Below are positions 1,947 through 53,485 of a stretch of DNA of 64,000 bases, in pieces (position 1 is the stretch's first letter; each line of letters opens with the position of its first letter). This DNA comes from Clostridia bacterium (GTDB taxonomy: Bacteria > Bacillota > Clostridia > Christensenellales > UBA1242), in NCBI GenBank assembly GCA_045657465.1, contig JAZOTD010000026.1, positions 1,156 through 65,155 on the forward strand, in the 5' to 3' direction. Position numbers and translations under genes: made by a program. The notes below the pieces were generated by a model. That model had not been told where the DNA came from, searched no databases, and saw only the letters and a program-made list of their open reading frames with translations.

Positions 1947-1980
1947 AAGAAAAAAGAACCAAATTTATGGTTCTTTTTTT
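1947..1980. terminator. Bidirectional rho-independent terminator between convergent genes
   Basis: Stem AGAACCA (1954-1960) / TGGTTCT (1967-1973), flanked by an A-run on the left and a T-run on the right. It can serve both the NUDIX gene (+) and the 669-aa gene (-). Confidence 0.7.
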
Positions 1981-3988
1981 ATTTTTCATTTTTTATTTGA
2001 TTAGCTTGGTTTTCGTGATAATTTGGTTTTTCTTCTTTTTGATATTTGATTCCATCACGACCAATTTTTCTTTTTCTAAATAACAATATTAATATTAACA
2101 ATCCAATATTGACTGCAATAAGCACACAACCTAGAATTTGAAGAGTTGTCCAAGATGTTGTTTCAACATAGTCCGTTTTTATATATCCATCTAAAACATT
2201 GCCATACTCGTCGTTATATTTAATATATGTGTATCCATTTTTTGTGTTGCGTTTTCCTTGAATTTGAACGGCTTGATCTTTTTTTAATACATCTTTAACA
2301 ACACTTTTTGAATCAGCAGAGGTGTAAACATATGTTCCATCTTTTTTAATATTTGCATTGGTAATCAAGAAATCTATATTTTTAGAAGGAGCAATAATTG
2401 AGTTGCAGTCTATATAACCAATTTCATCTCCAACTTTTACTTTTAACATCTTTGAATTGTTGGCTGTATATTCACAAATTGTGTCAATAATATTAACTTT
2501 TTGATGAACTGAAATGGTTTTTATGACTGTTGAGTATCCGGTTGTGATTTTTTCTCCGCCAACAACTTTTGTTGGGAGAGAGTAGAGTTTTGTTCCAGCA
2601 TGAACAGTGAATGTTGGATTGAATCTATAATCTTTAATATCAATGATTGATTTATTGTCAACATCCTCAAGTTTTGTATAACCCTTATAGTTTGTGTCAT
2701 TTGCTGTATACAAACAAACGATGTAATCTGCAAGCTGATATCCGCTGGACTTAATTGAACTTGTTCCTATTTGAATCAAATCAACCGCTTGTGGAATTTC
2801 AACAATTGCTGCCGAATCCCAAGGATTTGCAAGCAAAGGGGTTGTTTTATTTGTGTGTTTATAAACAAAGTTTGAATCTTCAAAATATGTAATTTCTAAA
2901 CTTGGGTTTGAAATTGAATCACTATCGCAAGAATATGAGTCTTGAGACAATGAAAACTTGTCATAATGAATAGATTGTCCAATAGGGTAGATGAGATATT
3001 CGGCATTTGTTAATGCGTATGAAGAATTACCTTCATGGGTAACATATGTTTTCTTTTCAAATTTGGTGTTTGTTCCATCGCCAATATTAAAGTTATAGAT
3101 TTGTGTATTTTGAGAAGTAACATCATTTGATGTTTCTTGATATGTTATAGCAAAATGTTTTTGATCAGAAATTGTCATTATATTGGCACTGACAATTTCA
3201 ATATTTTCAATAGTGCTTTCAAGTGAATCATAAAGTTGAGTGATAGATGTGATTTGTGCAGTTTCAGTTTTTAAGGTTGTAAGTGAAATTTCTGTAAAAC
3301 TTACAACACTTCCATGTATGAAAACCAATTGAATTTCATCATTAGAAGGCATGATTGTAAATGTCTTAAACAAATCATTTTTAACTGCTAAGATGTTTGA
3401 TTGTGTTACATCAAAAGTAATTACACATTCAAAATCAACCGAAAAATCGTCTGCTTTAGCGCATATAACAACCGGTGTTACATCTTGTTCATTTTGTGTA
3501 TTTGTAAGCGTAATTAAGTATGTTTCAACACCATCAACAACTGCTTCTTGAACGAATATTTTTGTATGTAGATCATTAATTGTTGTTGAGGTCAAAGACT
3601 TAACTTCTTTTGTTTCAATGTTGATTTTTAAAACGAAATTTGATGATTGATCTGATGCTAAAACAAACAAATTATTTTTTATAAACATAGCATCAATAAT
3701 AGTGTAGTTTGACAGATCTAAATATTCATCTTCAAAAGCAGAGTCAGCATAGCAATAGACTTTTAAAAAGTTGTCATATGAATCAATTGTATAAACTTTT
3801 TTATTATCAACATCACCATGAATTGTTGAATAGGTTGGTGATCTTAAGAATACTGATTCAGCCGCACTAAACTGTCTCGGCTGAGCCTTGGCTTCTTTTG
3901 ATACATAAAAAGGACATGCTAATAGCAAAAGCGAAAAGCATATCAAAACTGAAAATATAAATCTTTTAAGATTAAAATCTTTCTTCAT
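1979..3988 (-). CDS. Secreted, membrane-anchored protein: signal peptide, about 430-aa beta-rich ectodomain, two SH3b-like segments, C-terminal TM helix and charged tail
   Basis: N-terminus MKKDFNLKRFIFSVLICFSLLLLACPF...AKAQP. The C-terminal part has two ~65-aa segments ending in GYIDCNSII and GYIKTDYVE (a GW/Y-V-x-x-x-Y-V/L-type SH3b ending). These are followed by WTTLQILGCVLIAVNIGLLILILLF and then RKRK plus a Lys/Glu/Asn-rich tail. Confidence 0.6.
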   Translation of the reverse strand: MKKDFNLKRFIFSVLICFSLLLLACPFYVSKEAKAQPRQFSAAESVFLRSPTYSTIHGDVDNKKVYTIDSYDNFLKVYCYADSAFEDEYLDLSNYTIIDAMFIKNNLFVLASDQSSNFVLKINIETKEVKSLTSTTINDLHTKIFVQEAVVDGVETYLITLTNTQNEQDVTPVVICAKADDFSVDFECVITFDVTQSNILAVKNDLFKTFTIMPSNDEIQLVFIHGSVVSFTEISLTTLKTETAQITSITQLYDSLESTIENIEIVSANIMTISDQKHFAITYQETSNDVTSQNTQIYNFNIGDGTNTKFEKKTYVTHEGNSSYALTNAEYLIYPIGQSIHYDKFSLSQDSYSCDSDSISNPSLEITYFEDSNFVYKHTNKTTPLLANPWDSAAIVEIPQAVDLIQIGTSSIKSSGYQLADYIVCLYTANDTNYKGYTKLEDVDNKSIIDIKDYRFNPTFTVHAGTKLYSLPTKVVGGEKITTGYSTVIKTISVHQKVNIIDTICEYTANNSKMLKVKVGDEIGYIDCNSIIAPSKNIDFLITNANIKKDGTYVYTSADSKSVVKDVLKKDQAVQIQGKRNTKNGYTYIKYNDEYGNVLDGYIKTDYVETTSWTTLQILGCVLIAVNIGLLILILLFRKRKIGRDGIKYQKEEKPNYHENQANQIKNEK

Positions 3989-36786: not shown

Positions 36787-37470
36787 ATGAAATTTAACAG
36801 CATCAATACACAATCAAAGGTTTCACAAAATAAAAAACTTTCACAAGAAAAGGTGAGAATGCTTGAGTTGTTTATAAAAACGATGAGTGACGAACAAAGA
36901 CATAAATTTTGGATAAAAACATTGCTTTCTGCGCAAAAAATTTTCCCAGAAATTATAAAAAGAGTCGACAATATCATTGAGCTTCAAGCATCGTCAGTGT
37001 CATTTGCTTCAGATATTTATGGAAGCGAAAATCCAACGATGAAACAATTTGAAAAAGTTATCAACCTAACTGACAGAAAATCATTTTTATTAAACTTAAA
37101 TCTAATTTCTCAACAACTCACTAACGACCTAAACAAAGACGACAAAGATTTTTTAGAGAAAAGATATATTCATGGCATGTCAGTCGAAACATTGGCCGAG
37201 GATTTTTCTATTTCAGTAAGAACTGTATATCGCAGAATTGACAAATTAATCTCACAGATACAAGACAATATTTTAAGGAAAAACTGGTCACTAAAATTTT
37301 TAGAATCACAAATCAAAAATGAATATTGGCTACAACAAAAATTTCTTTCTCATGTAACTGAATATTGCAAGAATTTGAACTATAACATGGCAAAGTTAAA
37401 AAATATTAAAGAAGATCATCATCACCATCATAACGAGGAAAATTTGGATAATTTAAATTTTGGCTCTTAG
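36787..37470 (+). CDS. Transcription regulator with a sigma-70 region-4-like HTH (ArpU/RinA-like late activator or minimal sigma-like factor)
   Basis: 227 aa. The C-terminal half reads ...DKDFLEKRYIHGMSVETLAEDFSISVRTVYRRIDKLISQI..., the region-4 / ArpU-type pattern. RBS GGAGGA. It is divergent from the giant gene across a 430-bp AT-rich spacer. The tail reads EDHHHHHNEE. Confidence 0.55.
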   Translation: MKFNSINTQSKVSQNKKLSQEKVRMLELFIKTMSDEQRHKFWIKTLLSAQKIFPEIIKRVDNIIELQASSVSFASDIYGSENPTMKQFEKVINLTDRKSFLLNLNLISQQLTNDLNKDDKDFLEKRYIHGMSVETLAEDFSISVRTVYRRIDKLISQIQDNILRKNWSLKFLESQIKNEYWLQQKFLSHVTEYCKNLNYNMAKLKNIKEDHHHHHNEENLDNLNFGS

Positions 37471-38374
37471 ATTTATTTATTAGCGATAAATTTTTTAATT
37501 TAAATAATTGCTCCTTTAATTTAGAAACTGTTTTAACTGGTTGGTTTTCCATAGTTTTTTCATTATTGTTTTTTTCTTCAAAATTATCATATTTTGTATT
37601 TTTCTTAAATTTTTTCATTAATTTATACAAAATAATCAAAAATAGCACAATAATTGGAATTACTATTATCGATACCAAAATGGTTTTTAATGATGGGGAA
37701 ATATAAATTACTTTTTCTTTTGGATCAACAGCATCAATTATAGATTCTGGATTACTTTCACTATTAAGCACAATCTCTGACAAATTAACAACGTTTTCAC
37801 TATAAACATATCCTTCATAAACATTAGTTGAGTTGTGATCAGGAACATAACTTACATAATACCAAACATTACTTTTTCCACCACTAGGAACTTTACCTAT
37901 ACAACTTGCAATATATTTTATACCCAAGGTCCCTGCAGAAATTGTTGTTAATGAATCTCCTGACGTTGAAGGAATATTCCAAATTTGTGTTCCTGCACTA
38001 TTTTTTATATCACAAGTAACACCTTGAAGGGTTTTCACCACAGGCACAAACGTTGACCTAATAACATAATTAGAATTTATGTATCCAACAAACCTGTCAT
38101 ATTCAACTTTCAAAACTTCATCTGAAACATCTTCTAAAATATAAACAAAATAACTTTCAGGAACAACAAACAAAACATTATCTTCACTAAAATATAAATC
38201 TTCAGTTTTATAAAGGACACAATTTTCCAATGCCTTAGCATAGCCTGAAAATTCAGCAGAAGATAAAGCAATAGCTCTTTGATTTAAATTAAAATTAATT
38301 AGAAAGATTGATATTAAAAAAACGCAAATTTGTCTCATATTTAGATTATAAATATATCTTTTTTGCTTAAACAT
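37406..38374 (-). CDS. Secreted, membrane-anchored protein: signal peptide, two SH3b-like segments, TM helix, charged cytoplasmic tail
   Basis: Signal peptide ...MRQICVFLISIFLINFNLNQRAIALS. Segments end in VGYINSNYV and EGYVYSENV. TM is LKTILVSIIVIPIIVLFLIILY, followed by a KLMKKFKKNTK... tail. The start may be 38374 or the internal ATG at 38338. Confidence 0.6.
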   Translation of the reverse strand: MFKQKRYIYNLNMRQICVFLISIFLINFNLNQRAIALSSAEFSGYAKALENCVLYKTEDLYFSEDNVLFVVPESYFVYILEDVSDEVLKVEYDRFVGYINSNYVIRSTFVPVVKTLQGVTCDIKNSAGTQIWNIPSTSGDSLTTISAGTLGIKYIASCIGKVPSGGKSNVWYYVSYVPDHNSTNVYEGYVYSENVVNLSEIVLNSESNPESIIDAVDPKEKVIYISPSLKTILVSIIVIPIIVLFLIILYKLMKKFKKNTKYDNFEEKNNNEKTMENQPVKTVSKLKEQLFKLKNLSLINKSKSQNLNYPNFPRYDGDDDLL

Positions 38375-38421
38375 GTGAAATTTGTCTATTTTTGAAGCTT
38401 TCTAATTTATTATTAAACATT

Positions 38422-39858
38422 ATGAAAAAAAATCAAATTTTAAAATTATATCAACTAAAAAATGAAATCACCAGACGAAATATTTTGCCTCTGGCAAATT
38501 ACAACACTGGCAAAATTATTCACAAAAAACAATTAGCATTTCATCGATCTCAAAAAAGAAACAGGTGGGTGTTTGGCGGAAACAGAACCGGAAAAACTGA
38601 ATGTGGTGCCGTTGAAACAATATGGTTATCTCTTGGCTGTCACCCGTACAGAAAAAACAGACAATCAACAGAATGCTGGGTCGTAAGTCTTTCAACAAGA
38701 GTACAAAAAGAAGTTGCCCAAGCAAAAATATTAAAATATCTGCCGAAAACTAGGATATCAAAGATTATTATGGAATCAGGAAATGCATCAACACCTGAAA
38801 TGGGCATAATCGAATGCATTATAGTTAAAAATTATTTTAATAATTTTAGCAAAATCTGGTTTAAGTCTTGCGAGTCTGGCAGAGAAAAATTTCAAGGTTC
38901 TAGCCTTGATTTTGTGTGGTTTGATGAAGAACCACCAGAAGATATTTATAAAGAATGCCAAATGAGAGTTCTTGATAAAAACGGTGAAATTTTTGGAACA
39001 ATGACACCCCTTAAAGGACTCACTTTTATTTATGACGAAATTTATTTAAACAAAAACAATGATGATGAAGTTTTTTATTTATTTATGTCTTGGGAAGACA
39101 ACCCATATCTTAATCAAAAAGAAATAATCAGACTATGTAATTCTATGTCTGAAAGCGAGCTTGCAAGCAGAAAAGATGGCAAATTTGAACTAAAAGATTG
39201 CGGGCTTGTTTATCCCGAATTCGACACAACAATCAATGTCATTGAACCTTTTTCAATCCCTAAAGACTGGCAAGATACAATATCAATTGACCCAGGGCTT
39301 AACAATCCACTTTCTTGTCACTGGTATGCTAGGGATTATGACGACAACATTTATGTGGTCGCAGAACATTTTGAAGCAGGAAAAACCATTGAATATCATG
39401 CGGAAAAAATTAAAAACATCTCCGCCAAATTATCATGGAAAACCGCACCAAATGGCATGATTGAATCGCTTATTGATAGTGCTGCAAATCAAAAAACATT
39501 ATCATCACCAAAAAGTGTAACCGAACTTTTTTATGAAAATGGAATCATGGTAAATCCAAACGTCAACAAAGATTTACTTTCAGGAATATCAAAGGTGAAA
39601 ACCTACTTAAAAAACATTTCAGGAAAAACTAAACTTTATATCTTTTCTTCATGCACAAATTTGATTCAAGAATTTAAAACCTATCGTTGGAATGGCCATG
39701 ACGCACCAATAAAAAAAGATGACCACGCACTTGACGAACTTAGATATTACATAATGAACATAAATGCCAGTAAATCAATCTCAAAAACCCAAACAGAAAT
39801 TCAAAAACACAAAAAACTTTTATACAAAAATTTAAGAAGAGAACAATATGAAAAATAA
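38422..39858 (+). CDS. Phage terminase large subunit
   Basis: Walker A FGGNRTGKTECG, Walker B LDFVWFDEEPP, C-terminal nuclease-like ...KKDDHALDELRYYIM. The ORF track starts at a TTG at 38392. The ATG at 38422 (MKKNQ...) is the more likely start. Confidence 0.8.
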   Translation: MKKNQILKLYQLKNEITRRNILPLANYNTGKIIHKKQLAFHRSQKRNRWVFGGNRTGKTECGAVETIWLSLGCHPYRKNRQSTECWVVSLSTRVQKEVAQAKILKYLPKTRISKIIMESGNASTPEMGIIECIIVKNYFNNFSKIWFKSCESGREKFQGSSLDFVWFDEEPPEDIYKECQMRVLDKNGEIFGTMTPLKGLTFIYDEIYLNKNNDDEVFYLFMSWEDNPYLNQKEIIRLCNSMSESELASRKDGKFELKDCGLVYPEFDTTINVIEPFSIPKDWQDTISIDPGLNNPLSCHWYARDYDDNIYVVAEHFEAGKTIEYHAEKIKNISAKLSWKTAPNGMIESLIDSAANQKTLSSPKSVTELFYENGIMVNPNVNKDLLSGISKVKTYLKNISGKTKLYIFSSCTNLIQEFKTYRWNGHDAPIKKDDHALDELRYYIMNINASKSISKTQTEIQKHKKLLYKNLRREQYEK

Positions 39859-40300
39859 AAAATTTTGTCGTGACGATATCATTAAATTGTTAATAAAACT
39901 CGCTAATGGTTTTTATTATTCAGAAGAACAGTGTGAGTATGAAAAAGTGCAAAATAAATCAAATTTAAACAAAAAACAAGTAGATTATAATAATTTTGCA
40001 GAAAATTATTTAAATAATGTCAGGGGTTGCACACAATTAAATTTCTTGAGTGATATAGTTGAATTATCAAATGAAGAACCAAACAAACATGACAAAAACA
40101 ATGAGAACCTTACTCTTGTTAAAAAGAAAGTTGCCACGCATTTTATTTCGCCTGATATACACGCTGTTAAAATTCTTCTTGAAATTTTTTCTGAAAAGGT
40201 AGGTGATGATTCAATTGAAAATATGAGTGACGAAGAACTCTTAAAACTAAAAAACAACTTAATAGGAGAACTTTTAAATGAATCTAACAAAAACAAATAA
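39848..40300 (+). CDS. Hypothetical phage-module protein (150 aa), possibly small-terminase-like
   Basis: Overlaps the TerL 3' end by 11 nt. The SPDIHAVKILLEIF segment weakly resembles the C-termini of some small terminases. No firm motif. Confidence 0.35.
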   Translation: MKNKKFCRDDIIKLLIKLANGFYYSEEQCEYEKVQNKSNLNKKQVDYNNFAENYLNNVRGCTQLNFLSDIVELSNEEPNKHDKNNENLTLVKKKVATHFISPDIHAVKILLEIFSEKVGDDSIENMSDEELLKLKNNLIGELLNESNKNK

Positions 40301-40448
40301 AATTATAAAATGCGACACTGTTTTATGTCATCAAAATTCAAGCTATATTCTGTCAATCAATAGCTATAAGGGTGATATTTTTCTTTGTGACGCATGTTAT
40401 AAAAAAGTCAAAAATTTATTCAAAAAGGACAACTTGAAACATGAGTAA
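40278..40448 (+). CDS. Small (56-aa) zinc-ribbon-like protein, absent from the supplied ORF track because it is under 60 aa
   Basis: AGGAG at 40265-40269 lies 8 nt before the ATG at 40278. Translation: MNLTKTNKIIKCDTVLCHQNSSYILSINSYKGDIFLCDACYKKVKNLFKKDNLKHE (C-x4-C ... C-x2-C). The stop overlaps the portal start codon. Confidence 0.5.
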   Translation: MNLTKTNKIIKCDTVLCHQNSSYILSINSYKGDIFLCDACYKKVKNLFKKDNLKHE

Positions 40449-42288
40449 AGAAGAACATTTTTATTATAGTGAATTAGAAGATGAAATCATCATCAATTCA
40501 ATTCAAGCCGAGTTTAAGCAACGCCAAATTGAACGCAAACCTTATGAACTAATTTGGGAACTAAATATGAATTTTTATTTAGGTAATCAGTATAGTTATA
40601 TTTCAAACTCAGGTGAACTTCTCGACATCGAAAGAACATATATGTGGGAAAATCGCGAAGTATATAACCACATTGCACCAATCATTGAATCAAGACTCGC
40701 AAAACTCTCAAAGGTTAATCCAAAATTATATATCAAACCTGAGACCACAAATGAAAAAGATATCAATATTTCAAAACTATCAACATCAATACTAAACAAT
40801 TGTCTTGATCGCAACAATTTTAAAAAGATTATTTCAACTGCAACCCATTGGAGCGAAATCACCGGAACATCCTTTTATAAAATTAATTGGAATAGTGATA
40901 AAGGTAATATAATTGGAAATATTAACGGCAATATAATCAATGGAGGTGACGTTCAAATCTCTGCATGTTCACCATTCGAAATATATCCTGACTCAAACGA
41001 AGTTGCAAATATTGAAGATTGTCTATCAATTATTTATGCAAAAGCCATACCAATCAAACAAATTAAAGAAATATATAATATAGATGTAGATGCTGATGAA
41101 ATTGACACATTAGGCATTGACAACAAGGCATACTCATCACACATAAGTGGACGAAGCAATGTTTCTAAAATTATACATTCAACAAAAAATAACTACGCTT
41201 ATGTAATTGAAAGATATGAAAAACCTTCAAAAGAAAGACCAAATGGAAGATTAACAATCATTTGCAAAAATAAACTATTATATGATGGTGATTTGCCATA
41301 CAAACCATCAACTGAAAACACTTTTGTATATCCATTTATAAAACAAATCTCAAATAAGCAACTTTCTTGCTTTTGGGGGAGCAGTGTAATTGAACGATGC
41401 ATTCCAATTCAACGAGCTTATAACGCACTCAAAAACAAAAAACACGAATACATCTCTAGACTTGCAAGCGGGGTGTTAACAGTTGAAGACGGGTCGGTTG
41501 ATATTGACAATCTTGAAGATGAAGGTCTTGCACCTGGAAAAATTTTAGTTTATAGGAACGGATCGACTCCACCAAAATTTATGAACCCAGGAAGCATTCC
41601 AACAGAACTAGAAAAAGAAGAGGCTAGCCTACTTAATGAATTGAACAGCTTATCATGTATGAGTAATATTTCAACAAAATCAATTGTACCATCAAATATC
41701 ACAAGCGGCTCTGCCATTTCAATGCTAATTGAACAAGATGAAAGCAGGTTGTCACTCTGTGCAGAATATATAAGAAACTCAATTAAGCAGGTTGGGGTTT
41801 TTGTAATGAATCTTTTTAAAAATTATGTTACATCTCCAAGAATCAACAAATTAAAATTAACAAACGAAGAAGATGCAATTGTTTATTGGACAAATAATGA
41901 CATTACTGACAAAAACATCGATCTAGAAAATAATAACGAATTGCAAAAAAATCCAACAGAGCAGAAAGATTTACTTTTAACACTTTTTGAAAAAGGTTTT
42001 TTCTGCGATCAAAATGGCCACATTTCATCATCATATAAATCGCAATTAATTAACTCACTTGGAATTAAAAACATCAATATAGAAGATGACCTTTATGAAC
42101 TTCAAAAAAATAAGGCCAACGGCGAAAATCAAGAACCACAAAAAATAAGTCAACCATTAGAAATTGATGACCACAAAATTCACATTGAAGAACATACAAA
42201 ATTTATATTAACAACAACTTTAACAAAAGACCAATTAACCAAACTAACAAACCACATAAAACAACACAAACTTATGTCAAACAATTAG
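40441..42288 (+). CDS. Probable phage portal protein
   Basis: 615 aa, positioned just downstream of the terminase with only two small ORFs between, and followed by scaffold and capsid candidates. The call rests on position and size; no diagnostic motif was recognised. Confidence 0.6.
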   Translation: MSKEEHFYYSELEDEIIINSIQAEFKQRQIERKPYELIWELNMNFYLGNQYSYISNSGELLDIERTYMWENREVYNHIAPIIESRLAKLSKVNPKLYIKPETTNEKDINISKLSTSILNNCLDRNNFKKIISTATHWSEITGTSFYKINWNSDKGNIIGNINGNIINGGDVQISACSPFEIYPDSNEVANIEDCLSIIYAKAIPIKQIKEIYNIDVDADEIDTLGIDNKAYSSHISGRSNVSKIIHSTKNNYAYVIERYEKPSKERPNGRLTIICKNKLLYDGDLPYKPSTENTFVYPFIKQISNKQLSCFWGSSVIERCIPIQRAYNALKNKKHEYISRLASGVLTVEDGSVDIDNLEDEGLAPGKILVYRNGSTPPKFMNPGSIPTELEKEEASLLNELNSLSCMSNISTKSIVPSNITSGSAISMLIEQDESRLSLCAEYIRNSIKQVGVFVMNLFKNYVTSPRINKLKLTNEEDAIVYWTNNDITDKNIDLENNNELQKNPTEQKDLLLTLFEKGFFCDQNGHISSSYKSQLINSLGIKNINIEDDLYELQKNKANGENQEPQKISQPLEIDDHKIHIEEHTKFILTTTLTKDQLTKLTNHIKQHKLMSNN

Positions 42289-42297
42289 GAGAATAAT

Positions 42298-42888
42298 ATG
42301 GAAGAAATTTTAGAACAACCATCTCTTGAAACTGAACTAAATGACCATGGATTAGATTCAGCAAATCAAGAAGGCTCTATCTATGGAAAGTTTAAAGATG
42401 CAAAAACATTGCTTGATGCTTATAACTCACTTCAGGCAGAATTTACAAGAAAAAGCCAGAAATTAGCAGAATTTCAAAGAGAAAATGAAAATATTGCGGT
42501 TTTTAACAAAGAAGATTCACTTGATGAAATTTTAAAAGATGAAACAACTGACAAAGAGAAATATAAAAAGGAAATCACGGAGATTTTATCTACAAACAAT
42601 TTAGATAATCTGCCAAACAAGTATCATGTTGCTTTTAAAATTGCTAAAACTGTCGAGCAAAAAGTTGCAGACAATTTAAACAACATCCAATTTGTTGACG
42701 AGTATTTAACTAAAAACACTTCACTCAAAGAAAAAATAATTGGTGAATATTTATCAACTTTAAATAATATTTCAACCCCACCAAAAATGATTTCAGGCAA
42801 TCCTTCAACAATTCACTATTCAAATACTATTTCGCAGCCAAAAACATTACGTGAAGCGGGTGAAATATTTTCAAAAATGTTAAAATAA
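42298..42888 (+). CDS. Probable capsid scaffolding protein
   Basis: 196 aa, acidic, coiled-coil-like (GKFKDAKTLLDAYNSLQAEFTRKSQKLAEFQRE). Sits between the portal and capsid candidates. RBS AGGAG. Confidence 0.55.
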   Translation: MEEILEQPSLETELNDHGLDSANQEGSIYGKFKDAKTLLDAYNSLQAEFTRKSQKLAEFQRENENIAVFNKEDSLDEILKDETTDKEKYKKEITEILSTNNLDNLPNKYHVAFKIAKTVEQKVADNLNNIQFVDEYLTKNTSLKEKIIGEYLSTLNNISTPPKMISGNPSTIHYSNTISQPKTLREAGEIFSKMLK

Positions 42889-42897
42889 GGAGAATTT

Positions 42898-44070
42898 ATG
42901 ATTACATTATCAACAGCTGACAACGCGCTACGTGAAGTCTATCTTGGTGTTTTAGCAAACCAACTAAACACAACAATCAACCCATTACTTGCAAGAATCA
43001 ACCAAACAACATCAGATGTTTGGGGTAAGGAAATTAGAAAAATTGCTCCATATGGCATCAACGGTGGTATTGGTGCAGGAACAGAAGATGGAGCACTTCC
43101 AACAGCCTCTGCGACAAATTACGCACAATTTGTTTTGCCACTAAAAAACCTTTATGGAAAAATTGAAATTTCAGATAAAGCAATTAGAGCTTCTGAAAGT
43201 TCAACTGGTGCTTTTGTTAACTTGCTTAACTCTGAAATGGAAAATCTTTTAAAGTCTAGTGCATTTAACTTTGGAAGAATGCTCTATGGTGATGGTAGCG
43301 GTTCACTCGCAAAAACACTTAACAACACAACTGAATATATTGAAGTAAACACAACAACAAATTTAATTGAAGGAATGATTGTTGATATCGTTAATGATAG
43401 AGATATAATTGTTTATTCTGGAATTAAAATTGTATCTATTGACCGAATTAACAACAGGGTTTATCCAGCCTCAATGCCATGCGGAGCAGATGTTTTATAT
43501 GACACAGAATTCGATATCGTTGTTCAAGGCTCATACAAAAATGAAATTACTGGTCTTGGAGCAATCTTTTCAAACACTGGCAGCTTGTATGGTTTAGACC
43601 GTGAAACACACAAATGGCTTGTTCCATATATGAAAGATCATTCTGGTCAAGACATCACTGAAAATGCAATGCAAACAGCAATTGACGAACTTGATGAATA
43701 CACAAACAGCAAGGTTGACTTTATTGTTTGTTCTGCAGGTGTAAAGAGAAATTATCAAAACTATCTTGCATCATACAGAAGCAATATTGATGTTCTTAAT
43801 CTTGAAGGTGGCTTTAAAGCAATTTCTTATAACGGAATCCCAGTAGTATCTGACAGATTCGTTCCTGCAAAAACAATGTTCTTGCTTGACACAAAAGAAT
43901 TCAATATGCACCAACTTTGCGATTGGAAATGGCTTGAAAGTGAAGATGGTAGGGTAATTAAACAAACTTTAAATAAACCTACTTATCAAGCAACACTTGT
44001 AAAATATGCTGACCTCATCTGTAACAAACCAGCTGGACAAGCAAAACTTTCAAATGTGAAAGAATCTTAA
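42898..44070 (+). CDS. Probable major capsid protein (HK97-fold expected)
   Basis: 390 aa, directly after the scaffold-like gene, with a strong RBS AAGGAG and a strong hairpin after it. The call rests on position and size. Confidence 0.6.
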   Translation: MITLSTADNALREVYLGVLANQLNTTINPLLARINQTTSDVWGKEIRKIAPYGINGGIGAGTEDGALPTASATNYAQFVLPLKNLYGKIEISDKAIRASESSTGAFVNLLNSEMENLLKSSAFNFGRMLYGDGSGSLAKTLNNTTEYIEVNTTTNLIEGMIVDIVNDRDIIVYSGIKIVSIDRINNRVYPASMPCGADVLYDTEFDIVVQGSYKNEITGLGAIFSNTGSLYGLDRETHKWLVPYMKDHSGQDITENAMQTAIDELDEYTNSKVDFIVCSAGVKRNYQNYLASYRSNIDVLNLEGGFKAISYNGIPVVSDRFVPAKTMFLLDTKEFNMHQLCDWKWLESEDGRVIKQTLNKPTYQATLVKYADLICNKPAGQAKLSNVKES

Positions 44071-44079
44071 TATAATCAC

Positions 44080-44107
44080 ATATCCACATGATTTTTCATG
44101 TGGATAT
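44080..44107 (+). terminator. Perfect 11-bp stem-loop after the capsid gene (attenuator or partial terminator)
   Basis: ATATCCACATG-ATTTTT-CATGTGGATAT. There is no long T-run afterwards. Confidence 0.45.
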
Positions 44108-44126
44108 ATTGATAAAAGGACGATTT

Positions 44127-44513
44127 ATGAAGTTTAATGAAAAATATTTTAAAGAATATAAAGATATGTTTAATGTTTATAATTTAATAACTAAAATAAA
44201 CCCAAACTATAAACTATTTCGCAATAACAAAACAAACACATTTATCATTGTAAATTCTGCAAAAAATAATCAAATTTGCTTAAATTTTGATAATTTTAAT
44301 CAAAATATTTTAAAAACTCTGCAATATACAAAAATAGAAAATTCAAAAAATGTGTTTAATGATATTGAAAAAAACAATCTAATAATAAAAGAAAACTTTA
44401 ACAAAACACTTAAAAAACAAACCACTGATAAGATGTGTGAAATTGCAAACTTTTCAAAACGAGTAAACCGTCTTTCAACAAATTCAATTAATAAAATTAT
44501 AGGAGCAGACTAA
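44127..44513 (+). CDS. Hypothetical phage-module protein (128 aa)
   Basis: RBS AAAGGA before the ATG at 44127. The ORF-track start at 44088 lies inside the hairpin. Asn/Lys-rich with no motif recognised. Confidence 0.45.
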   Translation: MKFNEKYFKEYKDMFNVYNLITKINPNYKLFRNNKTNTFIIVNSAKNNQICLNFDNFNQNILKTLQYTKIENSKNVFNDIEKNNLIIKENFNKTLKKQTTDKMCEIANFSKRVNRLSTNSINKIIGAD

Positions 44514-45085
44514 TGTTAAAAAATATTTTAATTAAATGCGCCGAACTCTTAAATAGAAATGATATTGTTAAATCTTTAAAATCAATTGATAAAATCGACT
44601 CCATTCTTGATGAAACTTTAAAAAGTGATGTTTATAGGCTGATTAATTACTTTAATTTTACTTCTAACACAATGTTTGAAAATTATTTTGATTTAACTCA
44701 CAGCGAACAATTAAGTTCTAATAGTTCAAACATTATCAACTATTCAAGTTTTTCATACACTCCTGTCAAAATTTTATCAGTCAAAGATACTAACGGAAAC
44801 GAAAATGTTGCAACTGTTTTATCTACACATATATTAACACATAAAGCGCGCGCAACTTATACAATCTCTTATGCATATATTCCACATGAACTAAAAAATC
44901 TAACAGATGAACTTGAATTTCCTGAAAGATTGTCAAAGATAATTTGTTATGGAGTGGTTAGTGAATTTTTTGCATGCAAAAACTGTTATGAACAAAGTGA
45001 GTTCTGGAAAAATAGATTTATGTATGAAATATTTAAATTTAAAACAAGAAAGGAAAGACGTGTTAAGTCAACATTTAAATTATGA
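44513..45085 (+). CDS. Hypothetical phage-module protein (190 aa), candidate head-completion or connector protein by position
   Basis: RBS AGGAG. The start overlaps the previous stop (TAATG), and its TGA stop overlaps the next ATG (ATGA). Confidence 0.45.
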   Translation: MLKNILIKCAELLNRNDIVKSLKSIDKIDSILDETLKSDVYRLINYFNFTSNTMFENYFDLTHSEQLSSNSSNIINYSSFSYTPVKILSVKDTNGNENVATVLSTHILTHKARATYTISYAYIPHELKNLTDELEFPERLSKIICYGVVSEFFACKNCYEQSEFWKNRFMYEIFKFKTRKERRVKSTFKL

Positions 45086-46461
45086 GTGATATAAAACGAT
45101 TGCTTTTTTGTGATTTTAAACCAGACATAAAAAATCAATTCTCAAAAAACTCACTGGTTTGTAATAATTTTTATAATATTTCGTTATCAAATGGCACAAT
45201 TGATTCAAATTTAAATACATGCGATCTAATGAAAACATTTCTAACCGAATCACAATATGAAAATTTTACAAAACTATATGGCAGTTTATATGCAAACATT
45301 TCACGATTTATCCCATATCAATATGTCGATGAATCTGGGAGTTTAAAACTTAGAATATTTGCTATTGATAAAAATAACAGTATAAATGAATATAATGCGG
45401 ACGAAAGCAATTTGATAAATTTTAACACTACCTTGTCGGGCAATCCAAAGATTGTTTATCATAACAACTCAGTTTATATTTTAGATGGAACATCAACCAT
45501 TTATGTTGTTTCAGGCCCACAAAACCTGGCATTTTACCAAAACACAAAAAAAATTTCATATGTTAAATTTTATCGAGACAAAACTTATTACATGCTCAGC
45601 GATAAGCCAAATACAATTTATGTGGCAACTGACATTGAATTTGAAAAATTGCTAACTTCTGACCCACCAAATGAATCCCTGTTAATTGACATCAATTATG
45701 GCAATTTTCAAGATGTATTAATTTGTGATGATTATATTTATATTATTCAGGATTATGGCATTGCAAAAATACAAAAAACAAAAGATGAAACATATTTTAC
45801 ATATTTTAAAACCCACACAAAAATCATCACCGGAACTGCAAAATCAGTTAACAACTTAATTCTTTTTTATTCAGCAGCTGGACTATACAAATTTGACGGA
45901 AATAAAATCACACCTTTATTTGTCGATCTTTTTAATCTTTGCAATAAGCAAGGCATTGCTGAAACATTCAACAATAAATATTATCTATCAACACAAATGT
46001 ATACAAACAAAGAAACGATTAACTGTTTGATTGAAATTAATCTCTTTAACGACACTTATGTAATTTTTTCAATTGGAAAAGTTTGCCTGCTCGAAACCGT
46101 TGAATTACATGATTTTTATAACTTAATTATCACAACCTGTGATGATGGTTTTTTTAACTCTCTATCAATGGGTTCAAAATTTAACAATCACACATGTAAA
46201 AAGTATGTCGAGTTTAACCCTGTATTTTTAGATAATTATGATGAAAAATCAATTGTTAAGCTAAATATTTTTGCTGAAGGAGAGTTTAGATTCAAAATAA
46301 TTTCAAACAATGGTGATTCCATTTCATATAATGTTTCAAACAGTTTTTCAGCTAACAACATATCACTTTTTGGTCAGCATTTTAAAATTGAAATTTCTAG
46401 TATTTCAAACTTCAAGATTTATTCAATTTATTTGGAGTATAAAACAATTAATCATGATTAA
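45082..46461 (+). CDS. Hypothetical phage-module protein (459 aa), beta-rich
   Basis: Translationally coupled (ATGA). Recurrent hydrophobic strand-like segments (SVYILDG, TIYVVSG, TIYVATD, YIYIIQD, LILFYSAAGLYKFDG) suggest repeated beta blades. No family recognised. Confidence 0.45.
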   Translation: MSDIKRLLFCDFKPDIKNQFSKNSLVCNNFYNISLSNGTIDSNLNTCDLMKTFLTESQYENFTKLYGSLYANISRFIPYQYVDESGSLKLRIFAIDKNNSINEYNADESNLINFNTTLSGNPKIVYHNNSVYILDGTSTIYVVSGPQNLAFYQNTKKISYVKFYRDKTYYMLSDKPNTIYVATDIEFEKLLTSDPPNESLLIDINYGNFQDVLICDDYIYIIQDYGIAKIQKTKDETYFTYFKTHTKIITGTAKSVNNLILFYSAAGLYKFDGNKITPLFVDLFNLCNKQGIAETFNNKYYLSTQMYTNKETINCLIEINLFNDTYVIFSIGKVCLLETVELHDFYNLIITTCDDGFFNSLSMGSKFNNHTCKKYVEFNPVFLDNYDEKSIVKLNIFAEGEFRFKIISNNGDSISYNVSNSFSANNISLFGQHFKIEISSISNFKIYSIYLEYKTINHD

Positions 46462-46532
46462 ATCAGTAGATTATATCTTATCAATCACATCATTTCTTAC
46501 AATAAACAAAATCTTACACACAAGGAGATTTT

Positions 46533-47237
46533 ATGACACTAAAAGAAAAAATTAAATCATATAGCTTTTGGGTGAGTTTAACAAGTGCTCTTGTTTTGAT
46601 TTTAAAAGTTATAGGTTCAAAGTTTGGTTTTAATATTGACGCAACACTAGCAAGTGACATCATCACAAGTCTTTGTAGCATTTTGGTCATCACAGGAATA
46701 ATTGTGACTCCGACTTCAAAATCAGTAAAAGATTTGGAGTTTATCAATAATTCAAACAAACCACAAGAAACAACTGAAATAAAAACAACATTTAAAGACA
46801 ACATTTCAATCTTGTCAGAAACATTGAAAGAAACCGCCGGTAAAATTTTAGATTCAACCGAAACAATAGAAAATAAAAAGATTGAAGAAACAACCGAAGA
46901 AAAAACTTATTCTCTTTCAACTGAATCAAAAACTGAAAATTGTCAAGATAAACAAAATGTTGTCATCGAATCACAAAACACTATCATGACAAAACCAGTT
47001 GAAAATGTTTCTGTTGAAGAAATTGTCATTAACCCTATTATTGAACACAACACTGAGTCAATAGAAGTTGTTGCAATCGAAAATTTTCAAACGGGTTTTG
47101 AACCTCAAACCAATATGACAAACGATGACGATTTCAAAAAAATGCTTGCATCTCAAAAAGATAAATATATCAAAAACCTTGATGCATACATAGAAATCTT
47201 ATCACAAGAACTCAACTCATTAAAGTCAAAAGAATAA
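46533..47237 (+). CDS. Holin-like protein (Phage_holin_1 / phi11-type N-terminal domain) with a long acidic C-terminal extension
   Basis: MTLKEKIKSYSFWVSLTSALVLILKVIGSKFGFNIDATLASDIITSLCSILVITGIIVTPTSKSVKD follows the pattern of staphylococcal phi11-type holins as I recall it (..NWKLRFKNK...ALLLFIKQV..LFGLDL......IGAILTLLTGIGVITDPTSKGVSDS). RBS AGGAG. Confidence 0.65.
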   Translation: MTLKEKIKSYSFWVSLTSALVLILKVIGSKFGFNIDATLASDIITSLCSILVITGIIVTPTSKSVKDLEFINNSNKPQETTEIKTTFKDNISILSETLKETAGKILDSTETIENKKIEETTEEKTYSLSTESKTENCQDKQNVVIESQNTIMTKPVENVSVEEIVINPIIEHNTESIEVVAIENFQTGFEPQTNMTNDDDFKKMLASQKDKYIKNLDAYIEILSQELNSLKSKE

Positions 47238-47250
47238 AATTAAAAATAGG

Positions 47251-47281
47251 GGAAATACTTAAAAAGTATTTCTCTTTTTTT
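47251..47281 (+). terminator. Rho-independent terminator ending the phage-like module
   Basis: Stem GAAATACTT / AAGTATTTC, AAA loop, T-run 47275-47281. Confidence 0.75.
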
Positions 47282-47430: not shown

Positions 47431-48504
47431 ATGTCTTACAAAAACTCTATGAAGCTATTCGCTTCTAACTTTGCACTTGTTTGGAAACAATTGCTTTATT
47501 TAATGTGCACACTTCTTATTTTTTCATTGTGCTCATACACAATCACAACTCCAATCATTGATCTTTTGAAAGATAATGGAATTGGTGGTGATTTTAAACT
47601 TTTGTTTAACACTGTTTATGGAACACCAAGTGAACTTGCTTTAAATATTTCAGATGTTTTAAAACACATCATCACAATCTTGATTGAAAATTTTTCTAGC
47701 ATCTGGCTTTCACTTGTTGGAACAATCTTGCTTTGCTTTTTGTTGCCATACATTTTGACACAAGTTTCAATCTATAACATTTCATCAATACTTTATCAAA
47801 AATTCACAATGAACATGGATGTTGGATATATGCAAAACTTTTTAAGAACCTTAAAACAAGGTTTGAAATATGCTTTTGCAAATCTCATTTTTGTTCTTCC
47901 ATTTTTAGCAATATTTGTTGTTTTGCTTGAAATTTATTTACTCATTGCAAACACTATAATTTCTGCAATTATCGGTTTGATTGGTTTCATGGCTTTAACA
48001 ATTATGGTTTTAGCTTTTAAAATCACAATCTTTACAAACTATACAGCATATATGGTTGAAAACGATGCAGACGCTTTTGTTTCTTTTGCAAAAGGCGTTG
48101 CAATATCACTTAAAAATTTCTGGAAACCAATGTCAATCAGTATTATCTTGCTTTTAACAATCATCATGGTTAATGGCTTTATTGCAGTGTTTACATTCTT
48201 CTCAGGACTCATTATTACAATCCCAGCAACATATGTGCTTATTGCGATCTACAATCTCGTAACATATTTCAACAACAAAGGCATTAGATATTATTTAAGC
48301 AACACAATCATCTACAATCCTGTTAAATACACCGTTAAAAAAGATGATTTTGATTATGTAAGCATTTCAGTTCCTGAAGCAACAAAAGAAATTCAAGTAA
48401 CAACCACCGTTATGAAAAAGAAATATAAAAAAACAAAATCAACTAATACAAAACCAAAAACTAAAAAACAAAAAACTAAAAAACAAAAAATAAATAAGGA
48501 TTAA
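47431..48504 (+). CDS. Multi-pass integral membrane protein with a Lys-rich C-terminal tail
   Basis: 357 aa with several long hydrophobic segments. The tail is KKKYKKTKSTNTKPKTKKQKTKKQKINKD. Its stop lies 1 nt before the rnj ATG. Confidence 0.6.
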   Translation: MSYKNSMKLFASNFALVWKQLLYLMCTLLIFSLCSYTITTPIIDLLKDNGIGGDFKLLFNTVYGTPSELALNISDVLKHIITILIENFSSIWLSLVGTILLCFLLPYILTQVSIYNISSILYQKFTMNMDVGYMQNFLRTLKQGLKYAFANLIFVLPFLAIFVVLLEIYLLIANTIISAIIGLIGFMALTIMVLAFKITIFTNYTAYMVENDADAFVSFAKGVAISLKNFWKPMSISIILLLTIIMVNGFIAVFTFFSGLIITIPATYVLIAIYNLVTYFNNKGIRYYLSNTIIYNPVKYTVKKDDFDYVSISVPEATKEIQVTTTVMKKKYKKTKSTNTKPKTKKQKTKKQKINKD

Positions 48505-53136: not shown

Positions 53137-53143
53137 ATAATCA

Positions 53144-53456
53144 GTTGGTTAGACAATCGCGCCATTTTGGTGAGGAAAGTCCGAGCACCACAGAACAATC
53201 ACGCTTGATAACGTCAAGCCAAGGTAACTTGAGGAAAAGTGCAACAGAAATATACAGCCTTCGGGCAATGGTGAAAAAGTGAGGTAAGAGCTCACTCGAG
53301 ACATTGGTGACAATGACTCGCTGTAAACTCCGTGAGGTGCAAGGTGTGGAACATATGGGCTGTTCGTCCGTTCCCGTGACCGCTTGAGCATGGTGGTGAC
53401 ACCATGACTAGATTGATGATTGTCTTAAATGACAGAACTCGGCTTATAGACCAACC
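53144..53456 (+). ncRNA. rnpB: RNase P RNA (bacterial, type-A-like landmarks, compact at about 313 nt)
   Basis: P4 strands GAGGAAAGTCCGAGC (53172-53186) and ACAGAACTCGGCTTATAG (53432-53449). Also AGTGCAACAGAAA, GGTAAGAGCTCAC and GTAAACTCC. P1 pairing is GTTGGT (53144-53149) / ACCAAC (53450-55). It has its own promoter and terminator. Confidence 0.9.
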
Positions 53457-53485
53457 AAAAACGCATACCTAGTATGCGTTTTTGT
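53457..53485 (+). terminator. Rho-independent terminator after rnpB
   Basis: Stem ACGCATAC / GTATGCGT, loop CTA, T-run. Confidence 0.75.

Follow-up and report, generated by a model that had tools for sequence, protein, structure and literature searches.

Detailed knowledge of gene transfer agents (GTAs) comes from only a few lineages, nearly all of them Alphaproteobacteria, and it was not until 2026 that a first podovirus-like GTA, which was also the first from gut commensals, was described. Particles of this agent, FpGTA of Faecalibacterium, are approximately 40 nm in size, apparently tail-less and filled with approximately 8.5 kb of random host DNA (PMC12946183, Nat Commun 2026). The operon FpGTA I carries ten open reading frames (ORFs) in 10.5 kb, encoding a possible small terminase (TerS), a large terminase (TerL), a portal, a Prp-like protein, a major capsid protein (MCP) of the N4-gp56 family and a nozzle, and the fibres, receptor-binding protein (RBP), holin and endolysin are encoded by a second operon 125 kb away (PMC12946183). 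Moreover, faecal virus-like particles (VLPs) have been shown to hold evenly spread 4-7 kb fragments of Christensenellaceae genomes, with GTA-like packaging peaks of 4.1 and 7.1 kb for HGM11616 and of 6.3 kb for QANA01; no locus was named for this packaging, and GTA loci were searched only in metagenome-assembled genomes (MAGs) of Onthomonas, Gemmiger and Faecalibacterium (PMC12946183). In this study, we report the comparative analysis of a ten-gene phage head, packaging and tail module located at 38.4-47.3 kb of a 64,000-nucleotide stretch (the window) of contig JAZOTD010000026.1, from a Clostridia bacterium. The module is best explained as an ancient derivative of a short-tailed phage of the P22/T7 style that has been inherited vertically and maintained by its hosts.

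The window is chromosomal DNA of low GC content (approximately 32%). The ten ORFs of the module are co-oriented on the plus strand, and all of them were present and as compactly arranged as described in the original prediction, which had been made from the sequence alone. Adjacent ORFs overlap by 1-23 nt or are separated by 9 nt, the exceptions being gaps of 56 nt after the MCP gene and 71 nt before the holin gene. AGGAG-type ribosome-binding sites lie 5' of the genes for the zinc-ribbon protein Zn56, the scaffolding-like protein, MCP, p190 and the holin. The module was searched for domains using Pfam, PHROG and NCBIfam, and the window ORFs of at least 120 aa were scanned with the exception of one giant gene. 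For comparison 80 loci were fetched, and the presence counts given below refer to loci with enough sequence.

The first gene encodes TerL (38422..39858), which matches Terminase_6N, Terminase_6C and phrog_2 (5e-32) and contains the Walker A, Walker B and nuclease motifs quoted in the original prediction. The ORF is open from a TTG codon at 38392, and the ATG at 38422, giving the 478-aa protein called in relatives, is the more likely start. Identity of TerL across loci is 56-75%. The next gene encodes a conserved small protein, p150 (39848..40300; 60/61 loci), without a match in Pfam, PHROG, PDB or phage databases. It could possibly act as a small-terminase-like partner of TerL, an idea that stays speculative because tblastn gave no match for p150 in 50,697 phage records. 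Zn56 (40278..40448; 52/62 loci) is a 56-aa four-cysteine zinc-ribbon protein in which Cys 12, 17 and 37 are invariant in all 53 homologues and Cys40 is kept in 51 of them.

The portal (40441..42288), present at 63 of 63 loci, is of the P22 type, matching P22_portal at 3e-18 and phrog_156 at 2e-35. Between portal and MCP, as in P22, lies the gene for a 196-aa protein (42298..42888; 77/77 loci), which is acidic as had been noted (pI 5.1). Its one family match was weak, to a PHROG virion protein; no PDB match was obtained, and no protease match was found in Pfam, PHROG, NCBIfam or PDB. From its position the protein is regarded as scaffold-like. The MCP (42898..44070) is of the podovirus type, with matches to the NCBIfam model NF033394 (capsid_maj_Podo) at 7e-86 and to phrog_14242 at 1e-53; the PDB sequence matches of its profile were weak. 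Directly 3' of the MCP gene is a stem-loop (44078..44109) with a 14-bp stem (free energy -19 kcal/mol, z -7.6). In 47 of 84 loci the MCP stop codon is followed by a strong hairpin, unrelated in sequence between loci, and P22 has one at the equivalent place. This stem-loop is a candidate attenuator or mRNA-stability element.

Following the stem-loop, the module continues with p128 (44127..44513; 55/75 loci), a small basic protein (pI 9.7) encoded at the position of P22 orf69 and without a match in Pfam, PHROG or PDB. The product of the next gene, p190 (44513..45085; 70/71 loci), is considered an adaptor by its position only, which is that of P22 gp4 and T7 gp11. Alignment of p190 with these two proteins by hhalign was negative, its profile gave nothing meaningful against PDB sequences, and a single-sequence model (pLDDT 40) was unusable. 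The profile of the following protein, p459 (45082..46461; 64/64 loci), likewise gave nothing meaningful against PDB sequences. An AlphaFold2 model of p459, built from a 7-sequence alignment (pLDDT 79, pTM 0.72), consists of a beta-propeller and a C-terminal beta-sandwich. The best eight matches of this model in a Foldseek search of the PDB were all podophage nozzles, Pa223 (6e-14) being followed by VP1, GP4, Pan3, T7 gp12, P22 gp10 and Pam1, and its best BFVD matches were named 'P22 Gp10' or 'tail tubular protein B'. In addition, 44 of 59 members of the p459 family match phrog_3287, 'virion structural protein'. By its modelled fold p459 is thus a podovirus tail nozzle of the P22 gp10 / T7 gp12 class. 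The original prediction had seen no recognisable tail and had proposed that the 190- and 459-aa proteins replace one; a relation to a tail was borne out, but rather than being novel the two proteins correspond to the adaptor-position protein and the nozzle of a P22/T7-type short tail.

The last gene of the operon encodes a holin-like protein (46533..47237), as had been predicted, with matches to Phage_holin_1 (1.7e-6) and phrog_962 (2.6e-13), two transmembrane segments and a 170-aa acidic tail; its score against TIGR01598 (36.6 bits) is just below the model cut-off. An intrinsic terminator with a 13-bp stem and a T-run (47248..47276, plus strand) closes the operon; both this terminator and the post-capsid stem-loop had been noted in the original prediction. 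Judged from these genes, the module appears to encode a minimal podovirus particle made up of head, portal, adaptor-position protein and nozzle.

The genes are arranged in the same order as in P22, running from terL through portal, scaffold, coat, stem-loop and small ORF to an adaptor-sized (approximately 190-aa) gene and the nozzle, and the P22_portal family and the gp10/gp12 nozzle fold are further features shared with P22 and T7. Unlike P22, the module has no recognised TerS gene before TerL; a needle (gp26), ejection proteins (gp7/20/16) and a tailspike are likewise missing, and it lacks early, replication and lysogeny genes. Its capsid profile has no sequence similarity to P22 gp5, the coat belonging to another sequence family, and no deposited phage exceeds 30% identity to the module; the best among 50,697, which are Actinobacteria, Rhizobium or Xylella phages, show 22-30% identity.

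In agreement with the original prediction, no integrase, replication, lysogeny, tape-measure, sheath or endolysin domain was detected in the other window ORFs scanned (at least 120 aa, giant gene left out). A search for att-like repeats gave only AT-rich chance matches, and no tRNA was found. The scanned window therefore holds chromosomal structural and packaging genes without replication, integration or lysogeny genes, as is the case for GTAs. Vertical inheritance and purifying selection, which are likewise hallmarks of GTAs, were found as described below.

More than 6,400 homologues of the MCP (clusters at 90% identity) were found, with 60-100% identity and on contigs of up to approximately 1 Mb, and a pattern-limited scan with one genome per species located MCP relatives in at least 212 GTDB species representatives. 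Carriers with informative names are Christensenellaceae, Christensenella, Catabacter, Candidatus Borkfalkia, Christensenellales and CAG:727; neither a cultured host nor a Faecalibacterium name occurred in the look-ups of the MCP clusters, and an exact search with the window's own MCP retrieved no recorded contig. As suggested in the original prediction, the locus was compared across related genomes, and the module and its host neighbours were found to be syntenic in dozens of species-representative MAGs (Christensenellaceae, Borkfalkia and other Clostridia). The recurring order is giant gene, sig227 (a sigma-like regulator), mem322 (a membrane protein), TerL to holin, mem357 (another membrane protein), RNase J and O-methyltransferase (OMT), and this order was found even in MAGs that represent different species and share only 46-80% identity in RNase J. 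In distant lineages the flanks change and the module stays: ValRS or CysRS is inserted before RNase J, and rpoA-rplQ-RNase H, PGI or ABC transporter genes lie upstream of the module.

The module genes are intact, with full-length ORFs in 64 of 64 loci for the portal, 83 of 84 for MCP, 38 of 39 for TerL, 74 of 74 for p190 and 69 of 69 for the nozzle. Ratios of nonsynonymous to synonymous substitution rates (dN/dS) were obtained for the window and a 95%-identical relative, L081, as the reference pair. The values were 0.037 for TerL, 0.24 for p150, 0.023 for Zn56, 0.054 for the portal, 0.059 for the scaffolding-like protein, 0.048 for MCP, 0.14 for p128, 0.068 for p190, 0.13 for the nozzle and 0.11 for mem322, and those of the neighbouring genes were 0.025 for RNase J, 0.041 for the U32 peptidase and 0.10 for OMT. 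Approximately ten more independent close pairs from other lineages gave 0.01-0.10 for MCP, 0.02-0.07 for the portal and 0.07-0.20 for the nozzle. Purifying selection persists among the genomes of the window's genus, which lack fibre-like genes at this locus.

Pairwise distances of MCP, portal and TerL track those of RNase J (Mantel r 0.81-0.95, p<=0.0005), and r ranged from 0.68 to 0.96 when each of the six module genes tested was included; on average, MCP shows stronger conservation than RNase J. IMG/VR contains 13 relatives only (L085-L097), all of which are the chromosomal locus with the same host flanks, labelled viral, and the locus is likely to be a recurrent false positive of virus predictors. 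Because synteny, intactness, low dN/dS, co-divergence with host genes and the lack of free-phage relatives come together, the module is regarded as an old, vertically inherited and selected element, which upholds the domesticated capsid system offered as one option in the original prediction.

The functional unit probably extends upstream to 36787, thereby taking in the sigma-like regulator and a co-conserved membrane protein. The regulator, sig227 (36787..37470, plus strand), is a sigma-70 region-4 / helix-turn-helix protein with weak Pfam matches to Sigma70_r4 and to region 4 of extracytoplasmic function sigma factors; its residues 8-162 match phrog_36, 'transcriptional regulator', at 4.5e-9, and its family profile matches region 4 of SigF. 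It lies upstream of the module in 25 of 36 loci and is a candidate dedicated activator of the module. The membrane-anchored protein mem322 (37406..38374, minus strand) has two hydrophobic segments and gave weak PDB profile matches to SH3b-like repeats; it was found in 27 of 38 loci and is always divergent from TerL. Together, sig227, mem322 and TerL form a block that is either present as a whole or absent as a whole from the structural-gene locus. At the other end of the operon, between the holin and RNase J genes, lies the gene for mem357 (47431..48504, plus strand), a polytopic membrane protein with seven hydrophobic segments that is syntenic in 21 loci, has no family match in Pfam or PHROG and is of uncertain membership in the module.

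A 14-mer, ATGYGAWWWWTGTC (38373..38386, plus strand), has a single exact match in the window, upstream of TerL, and shares bases with the start codon of the divergently oriented mem322 gene. It is found 35-50 nt upstream of the TerL ATG and at the equivalent place in L001 (5470-5483), L002 (5471-5484), L004 (4948-4961) and L083/L084 (5473-5486 in L083), and it is kept although synonymous sites between those genomes are saturated. ATGYGAWWWWTGTC is therefore a candidate promoter or operator element. Loci bearing it have no Shine-Dalgarno sequence before TerL, so the TerL mRNA may be leaderless. A scan for sigma-70 promoters was at chance level (71 sites vs 67 expected). The motif, the post-capsid hairpin and the upstream block would fit a regulated, stoichiometry-tuned operon.

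A different motif was observed in the clade in which the locus starts at p150. There, a bipartite TGGCAS-N6-TTGA motif lies 30-180 nt upstream of p150 in ten loci (L038 at 521, L047 at 6977, L049 at 4251, L064 at 6473, L072 at 6710, L073 and L075 at 6709, L078 at 1151, L079 at 839 and L080 at 6945); it loosely recalls a -24/-12 promoter, but the spacing differs. At L028, ATAC-rich repeats of approximately 12 nt (ATACGAAAAGATACAGAAATATA) fill the intergenic region approximately 350 nt upstream of TerL.

The main variation among relatives concerns the region between nozzle and holin. The closest relatives of the window outside its own genus (L001-L026) carry 3.3-5.9 kb of extra genes there, encoding a 342-807-aa phrog_5302 'tail protein', a protein of approximately 672 aa, an 82-aa protein and often a DUF7934 protein and a BhlA-like small holin. 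Among relatives, the phrog_5302 protein was found in 20 loci, the protein of approximately 672 aa in 17, DUF7934 in 30 and the BhlA-like holin in 25; examples of such stretches are L001 13558-16846, L005 13570-18914, L017 14624-18053 and L060 13780-14685. No tblastn match to these accessory genes was found anywhere in the 64 kb of the window, the congeners L081 and L083 likewise lack them, and the short form without accessory genes also occurs in many distant lineages. In the window's genus tail-fibre-like genes may be encoded elsewhere, or the particles may not adsorb. Larger ORFs and insertions were seen at a few loci: the TerL ORF of L063 (1372-4326) is 984 aa, twice the usual length, and may hold an insertion such as an intein or homing element, and approximately 3 kb are inserted within the module of L028, L095 and L096.

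The module resembles FpGTA in being a chromosomal operon of approximately 9-10.5 kb with ten ORFs in a gut Clostridia lineage, in encoding TerL, a portal, a capsid protein and, three genes after the capsid gene, a podovirus nozzle (RCH50846 in FpGTA, by annotation), in having no replication or integration genes and in being near-ubiquitous in its host clade. There are also differences. The MCP of FpGTA is named 'N4-gp56 family' whereas that of the module is NF033394, and no N4-gp56 signal was detected in the latter, neither by an NCBIfam model at E<0.1 nor by hhalign against N4 gp56 (probability 0.1%). The place between portal and MCP is taken by a Prp-like protease in FpGTA and by the acidic scaffold-like protein in the module; the module has its holin in the same operon and a sigma-like regulator upstream; and the host order of FpGTA is Oscillospirales, that of the module Christensenellales-type. 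By these features, compared with FpGTA annotations and not its sequences, the module appears to lie outside the FpGTA family.

Like RcGTA of Alphaproteobacteria, the module is vertically inherited over an order-level clade under purifying selection, is a head and packaging cluster without replication or integration genes, and has some genes unlinked from the main cluster. The dedicated activator of RcGTA, GafA, is sigma-region-4-like. In contrast, RcGTA resembles siphoviruses: it has a long tail, a head of the HK97 type and a protease, and it shows no sequence relationship to the module, which would thus be an independent domestication. Compact head and packaging sets without tail genes of their own are also characteristic of capsid-forming phage-inducible chromosomal islands (cf-PICIs), but these are mobile, with integrase, alpA, pri-rep and att sites, depend on a helper phage and have their own TerS, and none of these features was found in the module.

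There is little doubt that the module was domesticated as such. The comparative evidence described above rules out that the module is a decaying remnant or that it is mobile as a prophage or satellite; the remnant and the satellite had been further options of the original prediction. A prophage fragment that is in decay and only seems intact in the genome studied could account for a gene set truncated relative to that of a full phage and for the loss of accessory tail genes in the window's genus. However, 98-100% of more than 60 species-level loci keep the core genes at full length, many independent pairs give dN/dS values of 0.01-0.2, and both the non-coding motif and the post-capsid hairpin are conserved. 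Where the original prediction had expected decay to be marked by dN/dS near 1 and frameshifts in relatives, dN/dS was far below 1 and no frameshifts were found, so that decay is extremely improbable. An intact or recently decayed prophage, which would show lysogeny, replication and lysis cassettes or pseudogenised remains of them together with neutral evolution, was also rejected from the domain scans of the window, the intact ORFs and the low dN/dS. The chance is also very slight that the module is a mobile element, either a minimal temperate podophage or a cf-PICI-like satellite, that repeatedly integrates at one site beside RNase J. Its head and packaging genes alone recall cf-PICIs, and IMG/VR classifiers label some copies viral, but those copies carry the same host flanks, and no integrase, excisionase, repressor, primase-replicase, att repeat or tRNA target was found in the scanned window. 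Moreover, the module stays while flanks vary by lineage and housekeeping genes are inserted between it and RNase J, it keeps its fixed position among housekeeping genes across families, its distances track host distances, its GC content is like that of the host, and, unlike cf-PICIs, it has its own TerL and no recognisable TerS. This view is largely refuted.

As to what the domesticated module produces, we favour, with some reservation, a GTA-kind, podovirus-derived viriform whose product would be a host-DNA-packaging particle released by lysis. Selection for something other than gene transfer is a less likely but serious alternative. Such a particle could serve programmed lysis releasing DNA-filled or empty capsids (as public-good extracellular DNA or as a decoy for phages or the immune system), could disturb infections by podophages, whose head and tail parts it would supply or poison, or could be PBSX-like and non-injecting. 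The purifying selection on the module in the window's genus, despite the lack of fibre-like accessory genes after the nozzle, is consistent with this, as are the lack of ejection proteins in the module scans, the unlinked or absent TerL in 11 loci and the unusually strong conservation; the authors of FpGTA also leave open a PBSX-like non-transferring role for their agent (PMC12946183). On the other hand, TerL and portal rank with the genes under the tightest constraint, an argument for selection on DNA packaging itself, and the universal presence of genes for the nozzle and the adaptor-position protein speaks for an exit channel that functions. Genes for fibres could, moreover, sit elsewhere in the genome, as in FpGTA II.

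Several observations weigh against a GTA-kind viriform. Neither a small terminase, needle or plug, ejection or internal proteins, fibres or RBP, tailspike nor endolysin was recognised in the 64-kb window, and because such genes were not found, DNA delivery, and even lysis, is not explicable from the window alone. TerL, sig227 and mem322 do not adjoin the structural genes in 11 of 43 loci (L044, L047, L049, L060, L064, L069, L072, L073, L075, L076 and L080), where the block is missing from the 7-10 kb upstream and housekeeping genes abut p150; if TerL were truly absent from those 11 genomes, DNA packaging would not be the conserved function. Constraint as strong as that seen here is more than GTAs usually show and might indicate some other role in the cell. 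Finally, the module is the obvious candidate locus for the GTA-like packaging of Christensenellaceae DNA (PMC12946183), provided that the genera concerned carry it.

If the module is a GTA-kind viriform, it may work as follows. A host signal acting via sig227 and the upstream motif would switch on the single operon from TerL to holin. Portal, scaffold and capsid protein would form procapsids, and the post-capsid hairpin would lower the expression of the downstream tail genes, whose products would be needed in low copy. TerL would fill the heads, with p150 and/or the zinc-ribbon protein perhaps standing in for a sequence-specific small terminase; the packaged DNA would have to be chromosomal because the element cannot replicate or excise. 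After p190 and the nozzle p459 had closed the portal, the holin together with a wall hydrolase encoded elsewhere would lyse a subpopulation of cells, and particles would be released. Delivery of their DNA to recipient cells may follow.

More tentatively, the module could be an order-wide GTA of Christensenellales and allied gut Clostridia that was domesticated independently of FpGTA from a podophage of the P22/T7 style and lies behind the 4-7 kb VLP packaging of Christensenellaceae, the window's genus having a naturally minimised version of it that comprises head, adaptor-position protein, nozzle and holin and lacks fibres in the locus. If this is true, no smaller self-contained locus for a DNA-packaging particle than that version would be known from bacteria. 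The module would then represent an independent, order-wide, podovirus-like viriform lineage, of which no earlier description was found in the literature searched; FpGTA is the closest precedent. Christensenellales, gut bacteria that are heritable and associated with health, remain almost wholly uncultured, and a defined gene set with a candidate regulator and a candidate promoter motif provides a concrete target for testing. The locus could be used to test the source of bacterial DNA in gut viromes, the extent of horizontal transfer and the frequency of phage domestication. Additionally, the capsid gene is usable as a host marker, and virus-prediction pipelines mislabel the locus as viral.

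The module adjoins a giant ORF of 10,751 aa (window 4100-36355, minus strand), of which congeners carry versions of 10,576-10,775 aa; its N-terminal part is kept at the same position in more than ten relatives with 29-41% identity. The original prediction had raised a linkage between this gene and the module. Since the giant gene is missing from Christensenellaceae-type loci, the linkage seems to be plain synteny confined to a single subclade. A 669-aa ORF (1979-3988, minus strand) adjoins the giant gene and had no match in a Pfam scan. Genes of the window around the module include those for RNase J, OMT, a U32 peptidase, a sigma factor, RNase P RNA and MgsA, and further genes encode a UvrD-like helicase, PnuC, LepA, HemN and HrcA. 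The RNase P RNA is of bacterial class A (53141-53462, plus strand; 242 bits) and occupies an apparent non-coding gap after the sigma-factor gene.

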